A DNA stretch of 51,462 nucleotides from UHGV virus genome UHGV-0127437. One strand, written 5' to 3'. The stretch is from a virus. The notes under the pieces are model-generated. The model did not search any database. It saw only the letters and a list, made by a program, of their open reading frames with translations, and had not been told where the DNA came from. The position numbers were made by a program, and so were the translations under genes. Each line of letters starts with the position of its first letter. The first letter of the stretch is position 1. This document shows positions 50-44,807 of this stretch, piece by piece.

Positions 50-1315
50 TCACTTCACACGCAAAAGGTCTTCATATCGAGTGGTGTATCGCGGTGAGAG
101 CATCTCCCGCTTCATCTGCCACTGCTGTTGTATGCCCTGTCCGGCGAAGTAGAGCGTACCTACGCCGTCTTTGGTGTTGAGATGATCCAGCACCTTCATC
201 AGTTTGTCGCTATTGCGCCGCGGCGCGTTATCATCAAAAAGGTTGAGTTGTGCCACCCCCTGGCTGAAGAAGTCGCCGAGCATAACGCCTGCCTTCTGGT
301 AACGGCGTCCATCTTTCCAGACAGCATCCAGGCATCGCGTGGCCGCGCCGATAATGTCCCGGCTGTCCTGCGTCGGGGTCAGAAGCTTCACAGAGGCGCT
401 GTTGCCGTAATACGGTTCGTTCAGTGCAAACGGGCTTGTCTTCACGAACGCGGAGATAAACCGGCAATATTGATGCTCGCCGCGCAGCTTCTCCGCCGCC
501 CGGCTGGCGTAACTGAAAATCGCCTGACGCATCTCTTCGTAATCAGTGATACGACCACTGAAGGAGCGTGAGCAGACGATTTCCTGCTTTACTGGTGCAA
601 ACTCTTCCAGTTCCAGACACGGCTCACCACGCAGCTCGCGTACCGTTCTTTCGAGCACAACATTGAAATGCTTCTTGATAAACCGGATATCTGTGTCAGC
701 CAGGTCAAGAGCAGTTTCGATGCCCATCCCCTCCAGCTTTTTAGAGATGCGTCGCCCTATACCCCACACCTCGCCAACTGGCAGCGCAGCTAACAGTTTA
801 CGCTGCCGGCCCACGTTCGATAAATCAACAACACCACCAGTCTGTCGTTGCCACTTCTTTGCCGCATAGTTAGCCAGTTTCGCGAGGGTTTTTGTCTGCG
901 CAATACCGACACCGACGGTGAGATGTGTACGCTGTAATACTGTAGTGCGGATCTCCCGGCCAAATTCAGTAAGATCACGGCAGTTTCGCACGCCAGTCAT
1001 GTCACAAAATGCCTCGTCTATGCTGTAAATTTCGACGCGGGGACTAATTTCTTCCAGCGTTGTCATTACGCGATTCGACATATCAGCGTAAAGCTCATAG
1101 TTACTGGAGAACGCGACGATGCCGTGACGGCGAAAAGTCTCTTTTTGTTTGAAATAGGGCTCCCCCATTTTAACAAAGGACTTCGCTGCTGCTGAACGGG
1201 CAATAACACAGCCATCATTGTTAGAGAGAACGACAACCGGCCTTCCTTTTAGGTCTGGCCTGAACACCGTTTCACAACTCGCATAGAAGCTGTTCACGTC
1301 TACGAGTGCAAACAT
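50..1315 (-). CDS. umuC: DNA polymerase V catalytic subunit UmuC (Y-family translesion polymerase)
   Basis: 421-aa ORF. The N-terminus MFALVDVNSFYASCE...VVVLSNNDGCVIARS is the UmuC/Y-family signature. It starts directly after the stop of the umuD-like ORF. Confidence 0.9.
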   Translation of the reverse strand: MFALVDVNSFYASCETVFRPDLKGRPVVVLSNNDGCVIARSAAAKSFVKMGEPYFKQKETFRRHGIVAFSSNYELYADMSNRVMTTLEEISPRVEIYSIDEAFCDMTGVRNCRDLTEFGREIRTTVLQRTHLTVGVGIAQTKTLAKLANYAAKKWQRQTGGVVDLSNVGRQRKLLAALPVGEVWGIGRRISKKLEGMGIETALDLADTDIRFIKKHFNVVLERTVRELRGEPCLELEEFAPVKQEIVCSRSFSGRITDYEEMRQAIFSYASRAAEKLRGEHQYCRFISAFVKTSPFALNEPYYGNSASVKLLTPTQDSRDIIGAATRCLDAVWKDGRRYQKAGVMLGDFFSQGVAQLNLFDDNAPRRNSDKLMKVLDHLNTKDGVGTLYFAGQGIQQQWQMKREMLSPRYTTRYEDLLRVK

Positions 1316-1317
1316 AC

Positions 1318-1734
1318 TCAGCCAGCAGACTTCACGATGTAAGTTACGACGCCGAAAACCTCCAGATTGTCTTCACTTCCAATCATGATTGGTTTATACA
1401 CAGAGTTTTCAGGCTTGAGCATGACAGCAGGATGCAGCAACAGGCGCTTAACTGTGAACTCACCGTCGACCGCTGCAATGACAATGTCCCCATGCCCTGC
1501 TTTTCGTGAACTGTCGACTACCAACAAATCGCCTTCGCCGATTCCGGCATCACGCATAGAATCTCCTGTGGCCTTCACGAAATACGTCGCGCTTGGGTGC
1601 CTCACCAGCAATTCGTTAAGGTCTATACGCGACTCAACATAGTCCTGAGCAGGGGAAGGAAACCCGCATTGCACAAGGTCACTAAACATTGGGAGCGCCA
1701 CATGGCGTAGATCTGTAGGCGTGAAAAACTGCAT
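1318..1734 (-). CDS. umuD: UmuD (S24 self-cleaving accessory subunit of Pol V)
   Basis: [13 protein letters not shown]...ATGDSM...[17 protein letters not shown] matches UmuD. The track start 1743 is a GTG. The ATG at 1734 has AAGGTG 6 nt upstream. Confidence 0.9.
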
Positions 1735-1752
1735 GATAATCACCTTAATTGA

Positions 1753-1772: not shown

Positions 1773-2034
1773 TTATTGTATCAATGGCAGCGATCAAGTC
1801 TCTTAGAAGTACAACACGGTAAGTAACTGGCGTGAGGTGAAATTTAGTTTTGTGGGACATCATCGGCGACCTGCACTATCGAACGATCGCCAACTGGCCG
1901 CATCAGTGTCTTGCATACGCTCTGGTGAGTAAACTTGACGACCCTTCGCCTTTAACGCCCCTCTATCATGTATGTCGATCAAGTACCGCGTTAGTGCTAC
2001 ACTTGCACTCTTTCAGAATTCACTGATTTTTCAC

Positions 2035-2397
2035 ATGTTAAAGCTATTTAGTCGATATGTTTCGGTTGGTGTTGTGAACACCGCGATTCATTGGTTATGC
2101 TTTGCTGGTTTGCTTCACTTCTTTGGCGCCAGCCAGGCCATTTCCAATGTTACGGCATTTTGCGTGGCTGTAACTTTTAGCTTCTTCGCTAATGCAAAGT
2201 TTACTTTCAACTCTCAGGCTACGACCGGGCGTTACATTGCGTTCGTCGTATTCATGGGGGTTATGGCTATGCTCACTGGGTTTATCGCAGATCAACTCAA
2301 GGCACCACCGATTTTAACGCTTGTGGCGTTCTCGGCTTTCAGCCTGATCGCGGGATTTATCTACTCAAAATTCATAGTATTTAGGGATGCTAAATGA
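2035..2397 (+). CDS. gtrA: GtrA-family bactoprenol-glucose flippase
   Basis: 120-aa polytopic membrane protein ([20 protein letters not shown]...YSKFIVF) immediately upstream of gtrB with an overlapping stop/start. Confidence 0.8.
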
Positions 2398-3314
2398 AAA
2401 TCTCTCTGATCGTTCCGGTCTTCAATGAAGAGGCCACGATACCGATTTTCTACAAAACGGTTCGGGAATTCGACGAATTAAAACAACATGAAGTTGAGAT
2501 AGTATTCATCAACGATGGCAGCAAAGACACAACGGAATCAATTATCAATGCGCTTGCTGTATCCGATCCGCTCGTCATGCCATTATCATTTACCCGTAAT
2601 TTTGGCAAGGAGCCAGCTTTGTTTGCCGGGCTTGATCACGCAACAGGTGATGCTGTTATCCCTATCGATGTCGATTTACAAGACCCCATTGAAGTTATCC
2701 CGCATCTGATAGAGAAATGGCAGGCTGGCGCTGATATGGTTCTGGCTAAACGCACCGATCGTTCAACGGATGGAAGGCTAAAACGAAAGACCGCAGAATG
2801 GTTCTACAAGTTACACAACAAAATCAGCAACCCACAGATCGAAGAGAATGTGGGTGATTTCCGTCTCATGTCCCGTGAGGTTGTGGAAAACATTAAGCTA
2901 ATGCCAGAACGTAACTTGTTCATGAAAGGCGTTCTTAGCTGGGTTGGCGGAAAGACTGACGTTGTGGAATATGCCCGCGGCGAGCGCGTAGCTGGTGACT
3001 CTAAATTCAATGGCTGGAAATTATGGAATCTGGCTCTTGAAGGGATCACCTCCTTCTCAACGTTTCCGCTACGCATGTGGACATACATTGGCCTTTTTGT
3101 CGCAGGTCTGTCATTCCTGTATGGGGCATGGATGATTGTTGATAAGTTATTTTTCGGCAACAGCGTCCCTGGCTATCCGTCGCTGCTTGTATCAATACTT
3201 TTCTTGGGGGGTATTCAACTTATTGGGATCGGTGTTCTTGGTGAGTATATAGGAAGAATTTATATAGAAACAAAGAAAAGACCAAAATATATTTTGGGGA
3301 AACGCAAAAAATGA
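2394..3314 (+). CDS. gtrB: GtrB bactoprenol glucosyltransferase (GT2)
   Basis: [13 protein letters not shown]...INDGSKD...DVDLQDP is a GT2 DxD-type N-terminal domain. Two C-terminal TM helices complete the typical GtrB architecture. Confidence 0.9.
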
Positions 3315-4909
3315 GAATAACGAAGATTTTTATTGTCACTTTGACATTCATTGTTATAAGTCTGCCTTTATTTGGTCACTTCTGGACGTCAGGAGACCTG
3401 TCCGCCCATTATTATAGGCTCATATCTATAAAACATCAGTTGGAAACACATCAGTTTCCGATGTATTTCGATTTCGTAACTGATAACATGCAAGGGTATG
3501 GATATTCATGGAATTTATTTTACCCTCCACTGACAGCTTTTCTGTATACAATTATAGAGCTATTAAGCTTTAATAGCATTGATGCTGTTATACAGTTAAA
3601 AATAAGCATAGCAATAATCTCAGCAATAAATTTTTTTATTATGTATTTTTCTGTAAAGAGAATTTTCAACTCTTCACAAATTGCTTTTATCTCAGCGATA
3701 CTATCCGTTACATCATACTATTTTCTATACAATCAATACACTCGCTCTGCATTTCCTGAAGCTCTTGCTATGAGCTTTGTACCCTTGTTACTTTTGGGGC
3801 TATTTGGGTACATCAACAACAATAAAAATAAAATTTATTTACCATTGTCGTTTTCGTTAATACTGTTAACAAATATACCCGCAACCATTGTCACTCTTAT
3901 ATTTATAACTTTATTTGTAGTAATCTTTCATAAGAAATTCATAGAACAATATCGAGATGTAATTTTACATTCATTTATAGTTATTGGTATAACGTCATTT
4001 TTTATACTTCCGCTTTATTACACATCTAAAGGTGACATTTACGCCTTTACATCTATGAAATCAAGTTATGAATCAATGTGGAAGCTAACCATACCAGTTA
4101 TTAACTTAATCATACCGACAAGAACAACGGAGTACCCTTTCAGACTTATTACACCGGGATGGGTTATAATGGGGCTAATAATAGCCTTGTTCACCATGAA
4201 AAAAAATGGTGATAAATTATCTTCCATGCTTGATGGGCACCATAAGGTGGCTATTTCAATATCTTTATTATTCATAATAATGTGCTCACAAATGTTCCCA
4301 TGGAATCACATACCAAAACAGCTTCCGGTACTTAATTTCATTCAGTTCCCCTGGCGAATGATGCTTATATCATCGCCAATCCTGTGCATTTTCGCTGCTC
4401 TAACTCTTGTCAAAATCGCCCAAGAATCCCAAGGGAAGAAAGGTTTAATTTATATTGTCATATTTTCATCAATTATTCTTTCTATGTATGCGTCAACAAG
4501 TCCATTCGATAACAAGGCGAGACTGCCATGGTATCAAGTATATCTTGATTACATGCCTAACAACATGGCGAGAAAAATAAATGAAATTAAAAAAACCAAA
4601 AAAGAACCTATAGTGTTAAGTGGAAATGGAAGTATTGTAAGCGCTAGATTAACTGGCGGCTATCCAACATATAAATATATTTGCATGGATGATTGTACAA
4701 TTCAACTTCCTGTAATTCCTTATAGAGGATATGAGGTAGAAGGAGTTAAATCTTTTTCTGAAAACAACATGGGGTTGATGCAGGTTAACGTATCAAAAGG
4801 GAGTGGGCAAATAAATTTAAAATATAATCCAATTATTATCTACATATCATACGGAATTACGTTAATCACAATAATATTGTTGTTATATTTTACAAGAAGA
4901 AAATCATGA
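3311..4909 (+). CDS. GtrC-type serotype-specific O-antigen glucosyltransferase (large polytopic membrane protein)
   Basis: 532-aa, very AT-rich, multi-TM ORF in the third position of a gtrAB cassette. The call rests on position and architecture, not on sequence recognition. Confidence 0.6.
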
Positions 4910-4941: not shown

Positions 4942-6978
4942 TTAAACTATATTACCCACACCATCTTTCCACGCACTTCCTGTCCATGTGATAGCATAAC
5001 CAAGAGTTGTATCCAGTATCTGCGCTCCTGCATCTGCTGCGTTTAATGAAGGGCGTAGTGCGGTCGTAAAGCTCGGTATCCGCACAGGTTTGTTAGCCTG
5101 TATGACGTTGTTCGGAGAAGTAATGTTACCAAAAGAACCAGATACTACGTGGATGACTGCGTAGCGATAACGTAACGCACCTACGCCAGTCCCTTCATCA
5201 GTGCCTAATGAAATAGTGCCGTCTCTGTGTGGCCGCAGGTACGCATGGCTACCTGACTCGTATACCGGGCCGAGGCGCATTGGGTTGGCGGTGCCGATAC
5301 AGATCCAGTTGGCAGAGAATAGCCGGTTATATGCTGTAGGGGCAGACCCATCAACATTATTGACTGTCAGGTCACTGACACCCAAGCCGTTGTGCCCACC
5401 AATAATACTCACTCGACCCGTAAGGTTAGTCATATAGTGGGTTCCAGCTTCACTATAGGTGTTTACCAAGTTAACGTTCGCTACCCGGTTCATGTAGAGA
5501 TTCCCTACACGAATGGTCGTGTTAACAAAGAATAGCTTGCTGCCGCGCCCATCCTGCCATTCTTTCGGATAACCGTTGACTGACGTTGTACCACTCCCAG
5601 ATCCGTCTGTAGCGTAATCGTTCATTCGGTTCGCGGGTTTCTCTGCGGTGTTTATCGCGGCATCGAGGTAAACCCCGCGAATGACGCTATTTGAGAAAAA
5701 CAGGTCGGACGTTCCTGTGCCGCCCCAAATCCAGTTAAGCGCGTAGCCGTTAGCCCCTTGCGGGTATTTAGTCCCGTCCCGGATATCCCGGTCAGTACCC
5801 TTTAGTTTCAACCCATACGAGCTAATCGCGCTTACCAACTGAGTGGGCTGTTTTGGGTCGAGAGGCCATGCAAAGAAATTATCGAATGACAAATCGCACA
5901 TGCTTTGACTGTTGATGCGCCCATTGATATTGAACGTATTGCCAGAACCGTTATTCTGGTCAGATCGGGAGCAGTCGAGGAGAACTGCATCATTCGCAAA
6001 GTAGCCGATAACCGCAGTACCAGACAAGGTTAACCCTGACACTGCCGGAACAAACAGGCCATATGAGAAGCACGCCGTTGCCCCGACGTCATCCACCCCG
6101 GTCAGCGATGGCGCTTCAAGAGTCCCGTCTGTCCGTTTGCGCCACCCCATCAGCACAACGTTGTTGATTGAGATTCCGTGGTCGCAAATACATAAGCCTG
6201 CACTGATCGCCGGGTCATCAGCGCCCTCTACAACGTCTGTCAGGACGTACGTTGCGGGGGTGCCTTTGAGGTTAAATCGGGTAAATCCCGGATCACTGAT
6301 AAGCGTCGCGAGTGTCGTCGCCTCATGACGCATACTATGTGAACGCACCGTGACGGCCTGCGCACCGGTAATGGTCGTGTTTCGTGGGATCATTCCCCAT
6401 TCAATATCAAAATCACCTGGGGGGAAGTGGCAGTTCCTACCAGCATTCTCATCTAAAAACGCCTGGATTTCTTCTTTTGTTGCGCCGCTTCCCCCCGTGA
6501 AATACACGTCATAAGACAGCCGTTCTGCAACCGTCACATCACCATAGCCGATCTGATCTGCACCGGTTGGCAGCGCCAGTTCGCGGCGCAGGACATCGCT
6601 GACATCTACGGCCAGCCATTTTCCGACACCTGTACCGCCGGATGAATCTGGAGTAGAGCCTGGCGGAACGGTTTTCGGTAGGGTCGTTAGATCATCCCAG
6701 CGATACCATGCGCCTGTTGTCTCATCCTGAATGATGTCACCGGCGGAATTAATAACCGCCCCGCCCTGAAATGTCCCGACTGGATTTAAGCCGAGGTTCG
6801 CGAGCGCTGTTTTATAACGCTCTTCCATTCCATGCCACGTAAGGCGCGGCACGCCAAAACGGTCATCCCATGTTTCATTAACCCGGTCATTCGAAAGGTG
6901 ATCAAAGTTCTGTGCGTTATCGTAAAGAACCTTGGCGGATGCAGAACCAAGAGGTTCATTGGTGTTATAGGTGGTCAT
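4942..6978 (-). CDS. Tailspike / receptor-binding protein (probable beta-helix O-antigen depolymerase)
   Basis: 678-aa terminal gene of the tail module next to gtrABC. It is Gly/Asn/Thr-rich and repetitive, like beta-helix tailspikes. The N-terminal ~120 aa look like a conserved adaptor domain. Confidence 0.6.
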   Translation of the reverse strand: MTTYNTNEPLGSASAKVLYDNAQNFDHLSNDRVNETWDDRFGVPRLTWHGMEERYKTALANLGLNPVGTFQGGAVINSAGDIIQDETTGAWYRWDDLTTLPKTVPPGSTPDSSGGTGVGKWLAVDVSDVLRRELALPTGADQIGYGDVTVAERLSYDVYFTGGSGATKEEIQAFLDENAGRNCHFPPGDFDIEWGMIPRNTTITGAQAVTVRSHSMRHEATTLATLISDPGFTRFNLKGTPATYVLTDVVEGADDPAISAGLCICDHGISINNVVLMGWRKRTDGTLEAPSLTGVDDVGATACFSYGLFVPAVSGLTLSGTAVIGYFANDAVLLDCSRSDQNNGSGNTFNINGRINSQSMCDLSFDNFFAWPLDPKQPTQLVSAISSYGLKLKGTDRDIRDGTKYPQGANGYALNWIWGGTGTSDLFFSNSVIRGVYLDAAINTAEKPANRMNDYATDGSGSGTTSVNGYPKEWQDGRGSKLFFVNTTIRVGNLYMNRVANVNLVNTYSEAGTHYMTNLTGRVSIIGGHNGLGVSDLTVNNVDGSAPTAYNRLFSANWICIGTANPMRLGPVYESGSHAYLRPHRDGTISLGTDEGTGVGALRYRYAVIHVVSGSFGNITSPNNVIQANKPVRIPSFTTALRPSLNAADAGAQILDTTLGYAITWTGSAWKDGVGNIV

Positions 6979-29531: not shown

Positions 29532-29557
29532 AAAGCCCCGCACGATGGCGAGGCTTT
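29532..29557 (-). promoter_or_regulatory. 9-bp hairpin downstream of Q (candidate tR'-like terminator or late-leader structure)
   Basis: On the minus strand: AAAGCCTCG-ccatcgtg-CGGGGCTTT followed by GTCGTTTCT. Confidence 0.3.
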
Positions 29558-29617
29558 AAGTTCGTCGACAATCAAAGCTATGGCGACAATATCAGATTTA
29601 CATGAAATATAGCCGTT

Positions 29618-40421: not shown

Positions 40422-40964
40422 TCACATGACACCCGGCGCTATGGCCGCGATACCACTCAGAACCTGAACGACAGCATCACCCGGCAACATATTCAGCAGA
40501 TGCTCAATCCCTTCCCTGACCTCTTTCACCAGCTGATGCTTTGGCGCATTCAGCATTACGGCCTGTTTCGCCTCGCTGATTTCCTTCTCCATCGCTGCAA
40601 AACGCGTCATGAAACAATCCTGTCCGATAAGACGCCCACGAAATTCCATCGGCAAAACAGCCAGGATTGCAGGAGTCAGCTGGCGGATGTTTTCGCGCGC
40701 ATATCCGGTATCACTGTCCAGCCAGCGGAAAAGCTTCTGCCGCTTACGGCTCAAGTCATCAGGAAAATCCAACCCGGCGCCGCCCTGCCGTTCCCATTCT
40801 TCAACGATGATCCCGGCGACTACGTCCTGGTTGTCCAGCGATGCCGACCACGCACGAACGGCAGCACGAATCTGGTCATGCTTATCCGCCGGATCAGGCT
40901 GATTGCGATTTATCATCGTGGCCGGAGGAAACCCGGTATTTTGTTGAAATGAAATTGAATGCAC
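40422..40964 (-). CDS. YdaT-family protein (functional CII analogue in Rac/CP-933P-type immunity regions)
   Basis: ...EEWERQGGAGLDFP...LFRWLDSDTGYARENIRQLTPAILAVLPMEFRGRL parallels E. coli YdaT (...EEYLRQGGGELP...YHRWLKGETKTQREKIQKLIPAILAILPRELRHRL). The GTG start lies 2 nt after the cro stop. Confidence 0.7.
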   Translation of the reverse strand: MHSISFQQNTGFPPATMINRNQPDPADKHDQIRAAVRAWSASLDNQDVVAGIIVEEWERQGGAGLDFPDDLSRKRQKLFRWLDSDTGYARENIRQLTPAILAVLPMEFRGRLIGQDCFMTRFAAMEKEISEAKQAVMLNAPKHQLVKEVREGIEHLLNMLPGDAVVQVLSGIAAIAPGVM

Positions 40965-40966
40965 GG

Positions 40967-41200
40967 TTACGCCCTCGCTTCCTGCGCCGGTAATCCATCC
41001 GTTGGGTTCGGATACAGATCAGGGCGCAATTCGTGAGGGGTAACACCGGTTATGCTGTGAATTTTTAATATGTAATCTGGCGGCACAATGCCTCTGTCGC
41101 GATGTTTCCAATGGCTAATTGACATACTGGTTACACCAAGTGCCATGCTTAACTTTCTCGCTGAACCAGCAGCCTTAATTGCTTTATCAAGTGCTGTCAT
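40967..41200 (-). CDS. Cro-like / YdaS-type HTH regulator
   Basis: 77 aa. The HTH is ARKLSMALGVTSMSISHWKH. It is the first gene of the rightward (here minus-strand) early operon and has AGGAGA as SD. Confidence 0.75.
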   Translation of the reverse strand: MTALDKAIKAAGSARKLSMALGVTSMSISHWKHRDRGIVPPDYILKIHSITGVTPHELRPDLYPNPTDGLPAQEARA

Positions 41201-41227: not shown

Positions 41228-41256
41228 AGTAAACCACAGATTTATATTTCAAGCAA
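41228..41256 (-). promoter_or_regulatory. PR candidate (TTGCTT-N17-TTTACT) with operator OR-a (41228..41246) covering the spacer and -10
   Basis: It has the same geometry as PL: -35 element, 4 nt, then a 19-bp operator whose last 6 nt form the -10. The OR-a plus-strand sequence is agtaaaccacagatttata. Confidence 0.5.
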
Positions 41257-41274
41257 TATTCAATTTATTGAGTG

Positions 41275-41293
41275 TGTAAACTAACCATTTACA
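41275..41293. promoter_or_regulatory. Operator OR-b (tgtaaactaaccatttaca)
   Basis: 19-bp palindrome TGTAAA-N7-TTTACA, 47 bp from OR-a and 9 nt upstream of the repressor ATG. Confidence 0.55.
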
Positions 41294-41301
41294 ATGAGAG
41301 A

Positions 41302-41685
41302 ATGAGAAAAGAAGAACCCAACAAAGCATTGATAGCGCGACTCAATGAGGTCTATGCCAGAGGCATTACCAAAGCAGATATGGCGCGAATAGCCGGAGTC
41401 TCGCCTCAGGCGGTCAATAGCTGGTTTAAAAAAGGCGTTATTAGCAAAAAATCAGCACTGGCTATAGCCGATGCTGTTGGCGTTTCGATCGCCTGGCTAC
41501 TCGGGGAAGATGTCGGCGAGAAAGATGGTATGAAGCCCGACGAGCAGCGCCTGCTGGAACTCTATCGCCAGTTGCCGGAAGAAGAGCAGCAGAACATGTT
41601 GCGGATCGTGTCTCTGCGCCTTAAGGAACTCGACGAGCTGTACGCCAAGTACATGGGACGGCGGATTAAGGGTGATGCGGAATAA
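41302..41685 (+). CDS. Prophage repressor (CI-like HTH) lacking an S24 autocleavage domain
   Basis: 127 aa from the ATG at 41302. The HTH_3-type segment is ITKADMARIAGVSPQAVNSWFKKG, followed by a short helical C-terminus. It is divergent from cro. Confidence 0.75.
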   Translation: MRKEEPNKALIARLNEVYARGITKADMARIAGVSPQAVNSWFKKGVISKKSALAIADAVGVSIAWLLGEDVGEKDGMKPDEQRLLELYRQLPEEEQQNMLRIVSLRLKELDELYAKYMGRRIKGDAE

Positions 41686-41771
41686 CTCCCCACGGAGAGC
41701 TTATGAGGCTGGGTATTGCACATAGGCCATACGAACCACCTCTGGGTAGAAAACTTAAATAAAATTTAATA

Positions 41772-42692
41772 GTGGGAATGGTAATGGAAGCACCTTATCA
41801 ATTAGAATTCACTGAAAACATTTATTATTCAATAGGTAATAACCCCAGCATTAAAGAAATCATTGAGTCTCTTCAAGGCTGGGAAGCTATTATCAAACAA
41901 TCTAAAGGAGTCCTTGCAGAGCTAACTGGAAGTGATATCCTGGATATTGAAGTTAGGGTTCAAAAGTTAGAAGTCGGGAGCCTAACTGAAAAAATTCTTA
42001 TCAAGTTAGGTTTTGGCAACGAAGAGAATTTTGATAAATTTCTCGAAAATGCGCATGAAAGGTACATCGGAGAAGGAAAAATGCGTAGCGCCTTAGTTTG
42101 GACGGTTATAGCAGGTGTACTCGCCACGGGTATGTATTTAGCCGTCAAAAACATGGCACCCAATAATGCCTCCCACTTCGAAGCAAATAATAATATAATC
42201 ATTAACATAGGTGCTGGCGAAACTAACATTTCACCTGAAAGAATACAGTCGGTGCTCAATAGTACATTAGTTGATAAAAAAACCGCTGCCAAAGGTGCTG
42301 TCAAAATTTTATCTCCAGCGCGAAATGACGAAAATGCAACATTAATGATAGGTAGCGATAACACTTCCGTAACAATACCTTCAGATTTAATCTCTAAAAC
42401 ACCAACCGAGGTTAGTTTTGAAGCTGATACATATACTCGAGACCATTACGATGTTGACCTTGAGATAAGAGCTCTTGATCTCGACAATCCGACAAAGGGA
42501 TGGGCTGCCGTGATTCCTGGCTTAGTTGATCGAAGGGTAAAACTAGTTTTGGCACCCGGGATTAAACCAGAAGACCTATCCCATAAATTCGCCTTCCGCG
42601 CTGATGTAACCATTACTTATAAACTTACGTCATCTAAAGGCGAAGCATACAAGCCAACAGAAATATTTTTAAGCAAATTAATCGCGGAATGA
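41772..42692 (+). CDS. Unrecognised single-pass membrane protein co-oriented with the repressor (rex/sie position)
   Basis: About 302-306 aa, with possible starts at GTG 41772, ATG 41778 or ATG 41784. It has a central TM (ALVWTVIAGVLATGMYLAV), is AT-rich, and ends at a terminator. Confidence 0.65.
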   Translation: MGMVMEAPYQLEFTENIYYSIGNNPSIKEIIESLQGWEAIIKQSKGVLAELTGSDILDIEVRVQKLEVGSLTEKILIKLGFGNEENFDKFLENAHERYIGEGKMRSALVWTVIAGVLATGMYLAVKNMAPNNASHFEANNNIIINIGAGETNISPERIQSVLNSTLVDKKTAAKGAVKILSPARNDENATLMIGSDNTSVTIPSDLISKTPTEVSFEADTYTRDHYDVDLEIRALDLDNPTKGWAAVIPGLVDRRVKLVLAPGIKPEDLSHKFAFRADVTITYKLTSSKGEAYKPTEIFLSKLIAE

Positions 42693-42698
42693 AATTAA

Positions 42699-42721
42699 CC
42701 CGGCCACCGCGCCGGGTTTTT
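42699..42721 (+). terminator. Intrinsic terminator of the repressor operon
   Basis: CCCGGC-caccgc-GCCGGG followed by TTTTT. Confidence 0.7.
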
Positions 42722-43038
42722 ATTGCCCTTTCCTCACAAACTCCGCAGCATCCCTCTTTGCGCCCTTGACTGTTTAGCAGCTATACACGCTACATCTACT
42801 TAATCAGGCTATCCTTGTTGATATATGATGCAAATAATCAGTTGGGAAATAATAAGAGAGTATCTGATAGTATGCCTGGTAACTGTTGTTATGGTCGCCG
42901 CGATTTCACTGGTTATGCTGGCCTGGTGAATTTTGCAGGGGTCTTTTCCCTGAAACATGCGCGACAACACACTCTGGTAAGACAAGCTCTGTTATGGTGC
43001 ATGAACAAGAAATAACAGCACCATATATCCGACTTACA

Positions 43039-43072
43039 GCCCGGATTACGACACGTTCCGGGCTTTTTTTTT
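43039..43072 (+). terminator. Strong intrinsic terminator with no annotated upstream gene
   Basis: GCCCGGA-ttacgacacgt-TCCGGGC followed by T9. Confidence 0.7.
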
Positions 43073-43075
43073 GCC

Positions 43076-43285
43076 CTATTCTTCCAGCAACTTCACCGCC
43101 AGTTCCATCGCCTGAATCTGGTCAGCATCCCACTTATCCAGCCCCTTCGATATCTCCGTTCGTATCACGTCAGCTATAGCCACTCTTTTGGTTTCATGCC
43201 CTTCAGCCACCATCGCAAACACAACATCACCCACAATCCGGCACATTTCCTGATAGCGCAACTGCGCCAGTTCCTCGTAATCCAT
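43076..43285 (-). CDS. Small helical protein, possibly YmgB/AriR-like
   Basis: 69 aa from the ATG at 43285, with GAGGG 6 nt upstream. The pattern ...IVGDVVFAMVAEGHETKRVAIADVIRTEI...AMELAVKLL loosely resembles the AriR family. It is antisense to both flanking operons. Confidence 0.4.
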   Translation of the reverse strand: MDYEELAQLRYQEMCRIVGDVVFAMVAEGHETKRVAIADVIRTEISKGLDKWDADQIQAMELAVKLLEE

Positions 43286-43343
43286 CACTAACCCTCGGCA
43301 ATTGATGTTTTTGTGAGCATAACACACGCTCCCTCTCCCAACA

Positions 43344-43362
43344 TATAAACCTAAAATTTACA
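43344..43362. promoter_or_regulatory. Operator OL-a (tataaacctaaaatttaca)
   Basis: It matches the TRTAAAC-N5-ATTTAYA consensus and lies 47 bp from OL-b and 18 nt upstream of the PL -35. Confidence 0.5.
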
Positions 43363-43380
43363 CCAAACATTAATTGAAAG

Positions 43381-43409
43381 TTGACACAACTATAAACCAG
43401 TGATTTAAT
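43381..43409 (+). promoter_or_regulatory. PL promoter (TTGACA-N17-TTTAAT) overlapped by operator OL-b (43391..43409)
   Basis: It has a consensus -35, a 17-nt spacer and a near-consensus -10. OL-b (tataaaccagtgatttaat) covers the spacer and -10. Confidence 0.65.
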
Positions 43410-43558
43410 CAATATCACAGCAACACGACCACCCAGGCAGGACGCCCACGAAGTAGCCGTCCGGGGCATACGAAGACCGGAATGAGGTGGATGAGTTAAC
43501 GCGCAGCAGGTATCAAACGTTCCGCCAGCCGGGCGACAACGGCAAGCAGAGGGTGAAA

Positions 43559-44680: not shown

Positions 44681-44686
44681 GCAAAA

Positions 44687-44703
44687 GCCCACACGAAGTG
44701 GGC
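44687..44703 (+). promoter_or_regulatory. boxB-like hairpin GCCCAC-ACGAA-GTGGGC
   Basis: 6-bp GC stem with a pentaloop, in an 127-nt gap before the recE-like gene. It shares CACGAAGT with a PL-leader hairpin. Confidence 0.3.
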
Positions 44704-44807
44704 CTGCCCGTCCGGCGTCACCGACCAAAGCGAACCGGACATTTCTACCTGGTAAAACCGAGGTGCCATTAAGGCGCCTCCATTCTACACGAATTGAGGA
44801 TAAAATA

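Follow-up and report, generated by a model that had tools for sequence, protein, structure and literature searches.

The virus genome UHGV-0127437, a stretch of 51,462 nucleotides that is referred to below as the window, represents a Rac/lambda-like Citrobacter prophage with a cassette inserted in its immunity region. The cassette carries a gene that follows the repressor gene on the same strand and, judging by a profile match over almost its entire length, encodes a member of the protein family PHROG 4506. The position of the gene, its mobility, and the predicted membrane location and conservation of its product suggest, with roughly even confidence, that it is a moron which is expressed in the lysogen and whose product acts in phage exclusion or defence at the cell envelope, a function that is read from context only.

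Gene boundaries and base composition

The open reading frame (ORF) at 41772..42692 on the plus strand is 306 amino acids long when counted from a GTG codon, and an earlier interpretation of the window (referred to as the sequence-only reading) had described the gene in that form. The ORF proved real, with a corrected start. The ATG codon at 41784 is the start in 34 of 34 aligned homologs and in the PHROG 4506 profile, and direct inspection of the sequence reveals a GGGA ribosome-binding site (41774-41777) located 6 nt 5' of it. Because of this agreement, 41784 is taken as the true start, so that the gene spans 41784..42692 (plus strand, stop codon included) and codes for 302 amino acids, not 306.

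The distance from the repressor stop codon to the ORF is 86 bp if the GTG is used and 98 bp if ATG 41784 is used, the latter defining a leader at 41686..41783 (plus strand). The gap had been described as free of terminators, and a consensus scan indeed found none in it; there is no T-run, and RNA folding of the gap is no better than that of shuffled controls (z = -0.37). The 98-bp leader contains no convincing sigma-70 promoter, as no site with at least 9 of 12 consensus matches was found in it. The simpler assumption for the gene in the window is that transcription from the repressor promoter continues into it, which would make it co-transcribed with the repressor. Downstream, the gene ends, as previously claimed, at an intrinsic terminator of its own (42697..42724, plus strand), in which the hairpin AACCCGGCCACCGCGCCGGGTT, with an 8-bp stem that includes 6 GC pairs (42697-42718), is followed by TTTTATT. 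The homologs in two of the sequences used for comparison (L085 and L002; such sequences are designated here by L numbers) likewise finish at terminators of their own, and the 25-bp hairpin is 100% identical in L008, even though the gene itself is only ~65% identical there at the DNA level. A search of Rfam detected no RNA element either within the gene or in its surroundings, apart from one sub-threshold match nearby, at 43024-43071 (see below).

The reported AT-richness of the gene relative to the repressor and PL genes is also evident from the numbers. The GC content of the gene is 0.393 and that of its third codon positions (GC3) is 0.323, compared with 0.505 and 0.565, respectively, in the repressor gene, 0.516 in the PL genes, and 0.497 in the window. 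By its GC content, the gene falls within the lowest 6.7% of all 909-bp segments.

Organization of the immunity region

The upstream gene (41302..41685, plus strand) encodes a 127-amino-acid CI/DicA/RacR-like helix-turn-helix (HTH) repressor that matches the Pfam domains HTH_3 (E = 1.6e-8) and Phage_CI_repr (E = 9e-6) and contains no Peptidase_S24 domain, in line with its earlier description as a CI-like repressor lacking S24; in NCBIfam, it is weakly DicA/RacR-like. The mechanically called ORF (41272..41685, plus strand) begins at GTG 41272, which is probably the wrong start: in RefSeq, the 96%-identical E. coli homolog starts at the ATG equivalent to 41302 and is 127 amino acids long. Two genes diverge from the repressor, a YdaS/Cro-like one (40967-41200, minus strand) and a YdaT/CII-like one (40422-40964, minus strand). 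Together with the YdaE-type PL genes, RecE, and RecT, they mark the prophage as Rac-like.

Two copies of a TAAAC-N-ATTTA motif are present where the repressor and cro genes diverge (41229 and 41276), and two more at 43344 and 43391, with a spacing of 47 bp, start to start, in both cases. The first pair, GTAAACCACAGATTTA (41229-41244) and GTAAACTAACCATTTA (41276-41291), occupies 41229..41291 and looks like OR, whereas the second, TATAAACCTAAAATTTA (43344) and TATAAACCAGTGATTTA (43391), looks like OL. The latter is combined with a putative PL promoter, TTGACA (43381-43386)-17-TTTAAT (43404-43409), within the interval 43344..43409 (plus strand). This promoter overlaps the OL-like repeats and faces the RecE/RecT/integrase operon; it was read by eye, since the scan demands an A at the second position of the -10 element and hence omits TTTAAT. 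As the two operator-like pairs bracket the repressor gene and the ORF, the latter falls within the immunity region, with the repressor gene on one side and OL on the other. A ~45-bp block just past PL (43501-43545) is 86 to 91% identical in the otherwise unrelated sequences L027-L031, L029, L007, and L008. It may act near the beginning of the PL transcript as a regulatory site, for example a nutL-like one.

The candidate counterpart of the PRM promoter is a TTGAGT-16-TACAAT site (41268..41295, plus strand; 9 of 12 consensus matches), which overlaps the second operator and ends 6 nt 5' of the repressor ATG at 41302. Judging from this spacing, transcription would begin at approximately that ATG and the repressor mRNA would be leaderless, as is the PRM-cI transcript of phage lambda.

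Predicted membrane topology, domains, and conserved residues

A single central transmembrane helix had been predicted previously, and the protein indeed contains just one hydrophobic segment, ALVWTVIAGVLATGMYLAV (residues 103-121; 42090..42146, plus strand), which has a Kyte-Doolittle score of 1.97 over 19 amino acids, includes the conserved Gly116, and is found at the same position in 35 of 35 aligned homologs. In a set of 139 distant representatives of the family, 115 have a hydrophobic peak of at least 1.6, and just 1 has a second such peak. The number of Lys and Arg residues within 15 positions of the helix averages 3.13 on its N-terminal side and 1.22 on its C-terminal side, and the N-terminal side carries more of them in 112 of the 139 proteins. 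By the positive-inside rule, the protein is predicted to be bitopic, with the N terminus inside and the C terminus outside.

An AlphaFold2 model built on a 35-sequence alignment (pLDDT, 83.4; pTM, 0.68) consists of a beta-alpha-beta-beta-alpha domain (residues 5-95), the transmembrane helix, a second helix that includes the sequence ANNNIIINIGAG, two more helices, and a beta-rich C-terminal domain (residues 186-299). On the basis of this model and of sequence conservation, the N-terminal alpha/beta domain, which is predicted to be cytoplasmic and contains the conserved residues L30, G65, S66, and F77, can be delimited as residues 1-98 (41784..42077, plus strand). The juxtamembrane motif ANNNIIINIGAG (residues 134-145; 42183..42218, plus strand) belongs to an Asn-rich helix; N137, I140, N141, I142, and G143 of the motif are invariant among close homologs, and it is kept at 60 to 68% in the deep family. 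The C-terminal domain (42339..42680, plus strand), predicted to be periplasmic, harbors the conserved residues P207, A230, D232, D234, G239, W240, and R251; in the model, it weakly resembles an OB-like beta-barrel, with a helical stalk between it and the transmembrane helix.

In 138 representatives with a median identity of 28%, the conserved positions are L30, G65, S66, F77, G116, P178, P207, A230, D232, D234, G239, W240, and R251; of these, W240 is conserved in 100% of the sequences and S66 and P207 in 99%. This pattern indicates purifying selection on the domains on both sides of the transmembrane helix. The same set contains no conserved His, Cys, or Lys residues, which suggests a binding protein rather than an enzyme. 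A role as the partner of a specific repressor, such as an ImmA-like protease, was considered and rejected: the protein lacks a HEXXH motif as well as conserved His and Cys residues, and one and the same protein pairs with unrelated repressors.

Family membership and distribution

Residues 5-304 of the product (numbered in its 306-amino-acid form) align with positions 1-299 of the 300-position PHROG 4506 profile (E = 2.5e-144; 480.8 bits). As PHROG 4506 has no functional annotation, membership in it names the family without explaining it. The only Pfam match was DUF5376, with an E value of 0.14 that is below the cutoff, and the 35 members of the alignment produced scattered chance matches; NCBIfam returned no matches to the protein. 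PADLOC-DB v2.0 (5,027 models from 2023, which do not cover later systems and among which a BstA model was not confirmed) contained no family matching at an E value of 1 or less. Nor did any solved structure match the protein, and a profile search of the PDB sequences produced nothing meaningful, with a methylase as the best match (E = 0.4). The statement in the sequence-only reading that the protein could be placed in no known family thus stands as far as Pfam, NCBIfam, and PADLOC are concerned, the only match being to PHROG 4506, a family of unknown function.

An exhaustive profile search retrieved 639 clusters (at 50% identity) with E values of 1e-3 or less, of which 270 reach 1e-30. Nearly all of the best 150 of these 639 clusters are ~295 to 320 amino acids long, and none of those 150 shows a domain fusion. 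With 639 clusters, nearly all full-length at ~300 amino acids, a chance ORF is excluded. A word-indexed search yielded 72 clusters, every one of them named "hypothetical," from Citrobacter, Serratia, Yersinia, Kluyvera, Pectobacterium, Salmonella, E. coli, Klebsiella, Edwardsiella, Lonsdalea, and Frischella. Genome and virome scans added Pseudomonas, Cupriavidus, Nitrosomonas, Dechloromonas, Pandoraea, Paludibacterium, and others, along with 49 IMG/VR contigs, giving the family a range that covers the Gamma- and Betaproteobacteria. Plasmid records are rare (five in all), and two small ones among them resemble phage genomes. The 90%-identity cluster that contains the product also includes Citrobacter koseri ATCC BAA-895 CKO_01906, the cluster of the E. 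coli homolog includes WP_192514479, and the window itself matches IMGVR_UViG_640753015_000002 at 100% identity over 12.9 kb.

Intact reading frames are found in the window and in 47+296 cluster members. In L058 (5498-6398), L021, L024, and L025/L065, the tblastn matches are split between different frames, which marks these copies as frameshifted or pseudogenised and shows that maintenance of the gene is not universal.

A mobile cassette in a variable slot

A blastn comparison delimited the mobile unit as exactly 41640-42724. This 1,085-bp segment (plus strand) comprises the last 46 bp of the repressor gene, the 98-bp leader, the ORF, and the terminator that forms its right end. It is 98.5 to 99% identical in L027, L028, L005, L030, and L031, where the flanking sequences are either unrelated or 67 to 80% identical. 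A 99%-identical gene is found behind at least four unrelated repressors, namely, an HTH-only repressor of 137/127 amino acids, a 155-amino-acid repressor, S24 repressors of 251/253 amino acids, and an S24 repressor of 235 amino acids. In L027 and L005 (5857-5902 in both, corresponding to 41640-41685 of the window), the 3' end of the HTH-only repressor gene, including its stop codon, persists as a non-coding remnant behind an unrelated S24 repressor. This remnant suggests that the cassette was first linked to the S24-less type of repressor.

In E. coli prophages with a 96%-identical repressor, homology to the window ends at the repressor stop codon; the gene is absent and other cargo takes its place. 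Such alternative cargo includes a gene for a 117-amino-acid hypothetical protein, a set coding for YoaK, HicAB, and a 141-amino-acid protein (HicAB being found in E. coli WEM25), and a group of three genes for hypothetical proteins. Since these sibling Rac-like prophages share the YdaT-YdaS-repressor...YdaE-RecE frame and differ in what it encloses, the slot is best seen as a hotspot of variable cargo. The alternative cargos had no match to a known defence system in PADLOC or Pfam, the HicAB assignment coming from the RefSeq annotation only. The sharp boundaries and presence-absence pattern of the cassette, its own terminator, and its divergent base composition are those of a moron in the sense of Hendrix and Juhala, and on this sequence evidence the gene is classified as such, that is, as a self-contained, horizontally exchanged accessory cassette.

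Genomic contexts of the homologs

The sequence-only reading had raised the question of whether the gene is always found next to prophage repressors. Its contexts were determined from crude ORF maps and a repressor-seeded phmmer search; in addition, 28 distinct upstream proteins were compared with Pfam, and 12 of them contain HTH_3 and 11 contain Peptidase_S24. By this crude ORF calling, and over contexts that are not phylogenetically independent, the 1.6 kb upstream of the homolog contain a repressor-like gene of the same orientation in ~27 of ~51 distinct contexts, with more than 20 unrelated repressors represented; assuming ~60 genes per prophage, chance would place the gene beside the repressor in ~2% of cases. 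The Enterobacterales contexts with at least 59% identity have an upstream repressor on the same strand in 16 of 16 cases, and the same arrangement recurs at 25 to 40% identity in Pasteurella, Kingella, Pseudomonas, and Dechloromonas, an outcome in favour of the sequence-only reading. The upstream gene encodes an S24 repressor in coliphage 1H12 (Jouyvirus; 59.7% identity), a 155-amino-acid HTH repressor in Salmonella (60%), an XRE repressor in Pasteurella multocida (31.7%), and a LexA-family repressor in Kingella potus (33.7%), while in Pseudomonas phage vB_Pae_U9 (24.6%) the repressor is located three genes upstream. The unrelated repressors and flanking sequences argue for many separate recombination events.

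Other placements, likewise in classical accessory slots, are found as well. In Edwardsiella and its relatives, the homolog is encoded on the opposite strand in the interval from Q to the holin gene; in Pseudomonas phages, it comes after a Q-like gene; a Mu-like phage has it ahead of the lysis genes; and Frischella carries it in a degraded P2-like element. None of the contexts contains a conserved partner gene; the homolog is always a single gene.

Two of these genera offer additional detail. In metagenome contigs of Frischella perrara (L081-L084), the homolog (39 to 41% identity; 5001-5882 in L081) is fixed between ogr and a truncated gpD in the P2-like remnant; it was found on at least 24 contigs, with 52 index blocks listed, and may be a domesticated copy kept after prophage decay. 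In Pasteurella multocida, a RelE/ParE pair directly follows the homolog; together with HicAB of E. coli WEM25, this places toxin-antitoxin pairs in or adjoining the slot in related prophages (L088, 3654-5043; L093, 4442-5043).

Comparison with known exclusion and defence systems

Repressor-linked genes expressed in the lysogen have repeatedly proved to be weapons of phage against phage, with RexAB, BstA, and several mycobacteriophage and Pseudomonas systems as examples. In phage lambda, the annotated gene order is OL - rexB - rexA - cI - OR. The gene in the window resembles rexAB in lying inside the immunity region, between the repressor gene and OL and in the same orientation as the former, in the involvement of the membrane, and in being an accessory gene that is absent from sibling prophages. 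However, Rex consists of a 279-amino-acid cytoplasmic sensor and a 144-amino-acid polytopic, channel-like protein, whereas the gene described here codes for a single bitopic protein of 302 amino acids, and the hhalign probabilities of 0.26% (RexA) and 0.21% (RexB) indicate no sequence relationship.

The sequence-only reading had assigned the gene to "the rex/sieB position," of which the first half is borne out and the second is not. In the Rac prophage of E. coli K-12, racR is accompanied by ydaG and ydaF on the same strand, followed by sieB, on the opposite strand beside PL, and kilR; the place of sieB is held in the window by a FumD/DUF2767-like gene, so that the ORF, judging by gene order, corresponds to the rexAB/ydaFG place. 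The SieB proteins of P22 and Rac still share with the PHROG 4506 protein the cI-to-PL interval of a Rac-like prophage, and their exclusion function is associated with the membrane, like the one proposed here. A BLASTP comparison with the Rac SieB found no similarity (best E value, 5.1).

BstA, the abortive-infection protein of the Salmonella prophage BTP1, is encoded beside or downstream of the repressor locus and is a cytoplasmic, DNA-associated protein with a KilA-N-like domain. The PHROG 4506 protein differs in having a transmembrane helix, and Pfam finds no KilA-N domain in it; the likeness lies in a single gene for a product of ~300 amino acids, located beside the repressor in prophages of Enterobacterales and found in diverse Gram-negative prophages (PMC8585504).

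P22, which unites c2, gtrABC, sieA, and sieB (PMC10883804), provides another counterpart in SieA, a prophage-expressed superinfection exclusion protein of the inner membrane that is encoded by a single gene, lacks enzymatic motifs, and blocks the injection of DNA. SieA is thought to interfere with the trans-envelope conduit for DNA delivery; it is 162 to 164 amino acids long, has three predicted transmembrane segments, and is confined to P22-like phages (PMC10883804). Its gene is located elsewhere in the genome, whereas the PHROG 4506 protein has one transmembrane segment with large domains on both sides and is found in lambdoid, Mu-like, and P2-like phages. Recent work on SNIPE shows that a defence can exploit the place where the phage genome enters, which brings it close in concept to the entry-site model discussed below: SNIPE is a single-protein, constitutively membrane-localised nuclease that cleaves phage DNA during injection and associates with the tape-measure protein and entry factors (PMC13190303). 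PHROG 4506 differs from it in showing neither a nuclease motif nor any conserved His, Cys, or Lys.

Clear homology to a characterised Sie, Rex, or Abi family, which according to the sequence-only reading would refute its proposal, was not detected by PADLOC, hhalign, or BLASTP, and no PHROG annotated as an exclusion protein matched the product.

Other features of the prophage

The end of the prophage opposite to the immunity region carries a classical lysogenic-conversion cargo, a gtrABC-like operon for O-antigen modification (1972-4909, plus strand), which holds the 909-bp stretch with the lowest GC content in the window (0.31). The operon encodes GtrA (141 amino acids), a family-2 glycosyltransferase/GtrB (306 amino acids), and a GtrC-like membrane protein of 532 amino acids (PTPS_related). 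It is adjoined by a tailspike gene (Tail_spike_N; 4942-6978, minus strand) and, past the operon at the left edge of the window (50-1743, minus strand), there are umuD-like (Peptidase_S24, 141 amino acids) and umuC-like (IMS family, 421 amino acids) genes, which may belong either to the prophage or to its host.

Next to the cassette, but outside it, is the DUF2767/FumD-like gene (43076..43327, minus strand; 82 amino acids), identified by matches to Pfam DUF2767 (E = 2e-38) and NCBIfam FumD (E = 1.9e-30). It lies beside OL/PL, and fumD is found at the matching place in the E. coli sibling prophage L001 (6260-6469). The 350 bp between the cassette terminator and this gene (42725-43075, plus strand) could hold a small transcript or a small ORF. 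This interval ends in a plus-strand hairpin, AGCCCGGA...TCCGGGCT, followed by T9 (~43038-43075), whose 11-nt loop put it outside the scan; it contains the sub-threshold Rfam signal mentioned above (43024-43071; Betaproteobacteria toxic small RNA, 23 bits, E = 0.11) and a 66-amino-acid ORF (42815-43015) with no Pfam match. Two further Rfam matches exceed the gathering score, both to small RNAs of Salmonella islands: isrB (44682-44770, minus strand; 99.9 bits), antisense in the 5' part of the long recE-like ORF, and isrJ (29532-29602, minus strand; 69.2 bits) in the late region.

Possible functions

The proposed exclusion or defence role would begin with transcription of the gene in the lysogen by read-through from the repressor maintenance promoter, halted at the gene's own terminator. 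The product would be a bitopic inner-membrane protein with, in order, a ~95-amino-acid cytoplasmic alpha/beta domain, the transmembrane helix, the Asn-rich juxtamembrane helix, a periplasmic stalk, and a C-terminal OB-like barrel. In the preferred version, superinfection exclusion, the periplasmic domain would bind a component of the DNA-delivery apparatus of an incoming phage (the tape-measure protein, an ejection protein, or a tail-tip protein) or an inner-membrane entry factor. In a second version, the protein would be an abortive-infection sensor, with the periplasmic domain detecting entry and the cytoplasmic domain, or oligomerisation driven by the transmembrane helix, executing the response. 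By analogy with SieA, Imm, and HK97 gp15, an entry block appears slightly preferable, while the sensor model stays viable in view of the broad distribution among phages and the conservation of the cytoplasmic domain.

Exclusion or defence at the level of the envelope is favoured by a position that has precedents in RexAB and BstA, combined with independence from any particular repressor, and by the membrane location, the binding-type periplasmic domain, and the lack of a catalytic signature. The presence of the family in many types of phages and hosts suggests a target related to phages. The receptor-modifying gtrABC-like operon carried by the same prophage, as in P22, points in the same direction.

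Several observations weigh against this interpretation. The protein has no similarity to known defence or exclusion proteins, which leaves location as the ground for the functional call, and the literature searched yielded only analogous systems, with no mention of the gene or its homologs. About half of the distant family contexts do not adjoin a repressor, and the slot is not demonstrably a defence hotspot, because its alternative cargos also miss PADLOC. The spread over lambdoid, Mu-like, and P2-like phages of many genera is a poor fit to a SieA-like injection block narrowly specific for the phage's own type. The topology is derived from the positive-inside rule alone. Finally, the promoter scan is uninformative both ways, because it was blank also upstream of the opposite-strand copies in L085 and L087, where the gene must have a promoter of its own.

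Much of the evidence for a lysogen-linked membrane moron would fit equally with a lysogenic-conversion factor outside phage defence, e.g., an envelope protein that, in the manner of lambda bor and lom, alters stress tolerance, colonisation, serum or antimicrobial resistance, or signalling of the host. Such a role, which is considered rather unlikely, is consistent with the other conversion cargo of the prophage (the gtrABC-like and umuDC-like genes), with the lack of a defence-family signature in the protein, and with its bitopic shape, which recalls transmembrane signalling proteins such as anti-sigma factors. However, no partner gene such as one for a sigma factor or a regulator accompanies it, and the repressor-adjacent slot of lambdoid phages is best known for exclusion genes. 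In addition, the hosts and habitats of the family are very diverse, from gut Enterobacterales and Frischella of the bee gut to Pseudomonas, Nitrosomonas, Kingella, and Pasteurella, and this diversity suggests a target common to phage-infected cells rather than a trait of a host niche. The tight and conserved adjacency to repressors raises the further possibility of a role in the genetic switch, either as a membrane-anchored modulator of the maintenance or induction of lysogeny, as proposed for lambda RexA and RexB, or as a sensor of the envelope state coupled to induction. The sensor idea is attractive because the repressor in the window lacks the S24 autocleavage domain; the cassette apparently arose beside an HTH-only repressor, to judge by the 3' end that it has retained, and the conserved cytoplasmic domain might serve for contact with a regulator. 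A role in the switch is nonetheless improbable. The identical protein stands behind no fewer than four unrelated repressors, some with and some without S24, which makes a specific partnership with a repressor unlikely; members of the family also occur far from repressors (as shown by the opposite-strand copies of the Q-lysis slot, the Mu-like phage, and the P2-like remnant); and the gene must be dispensable for the switch, because close prophages with the same repressor are entirely without it.

The possibility that the gene is a decaying or non-functional passenger in a recombination-prone junction deserves very little credence. Repressor-adjacent junctions are known recombination hotspots, the copies in L058, L021, L024, and L025/L065 are frameshifted or cut, and many cluster members are partial. 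Against this stand the uniform length of ~300 amino acids across the 639 clusters, the near-invariance of W240, S66, and P207 at a median identity of 28%, a confident AlphaFold2 model (pLDDT 83), and the intact frame in the window and in 47+296 cluster members, so that conservation has already largely refuted the passenger reading.

Implications

The PHROG 4506 proteins constitute a new family in the known niche of lysogen-expressed accessory and exclusion genes of prophages. A more far-reaching possibility, put forward here with considerable reservation, is that PHROG 4506 consists of bitopic prophage immunity proteins of a trans-envelope kind, the first such family to be described, in which both the fold and the mechanism of exclusion or abortive infection would be new. 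In that case, the periplasmic OB-like domain would recognise the DNA-delivery apparatus or envelope damage, and the transmembrane helix and the cytoplasmic domain would transmit the signal or execute the response; if this is true, a plug-in immunity cassette sits behind the repressors of hundreds of temperate phages of Gamma- and Betaproteobacteria.

The family is structurally unlike the known exclusion proteins, and a single gene with clean boundaries is easily tested. Should it prove protective, it would represent a new mechanism of immunity at the membrane level, would improve the annotation of thousands of prophages in Citrobacter, Salmonella, E. coli, Klebsiella, Serratia, Yersinia, Pseudomonas, and other genera, and would be relevant to the prediction of host range in phage therapy. 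Without a protective role, PHROG 4506 would still be a well-defined and widespread lysogenic-conversion gene.

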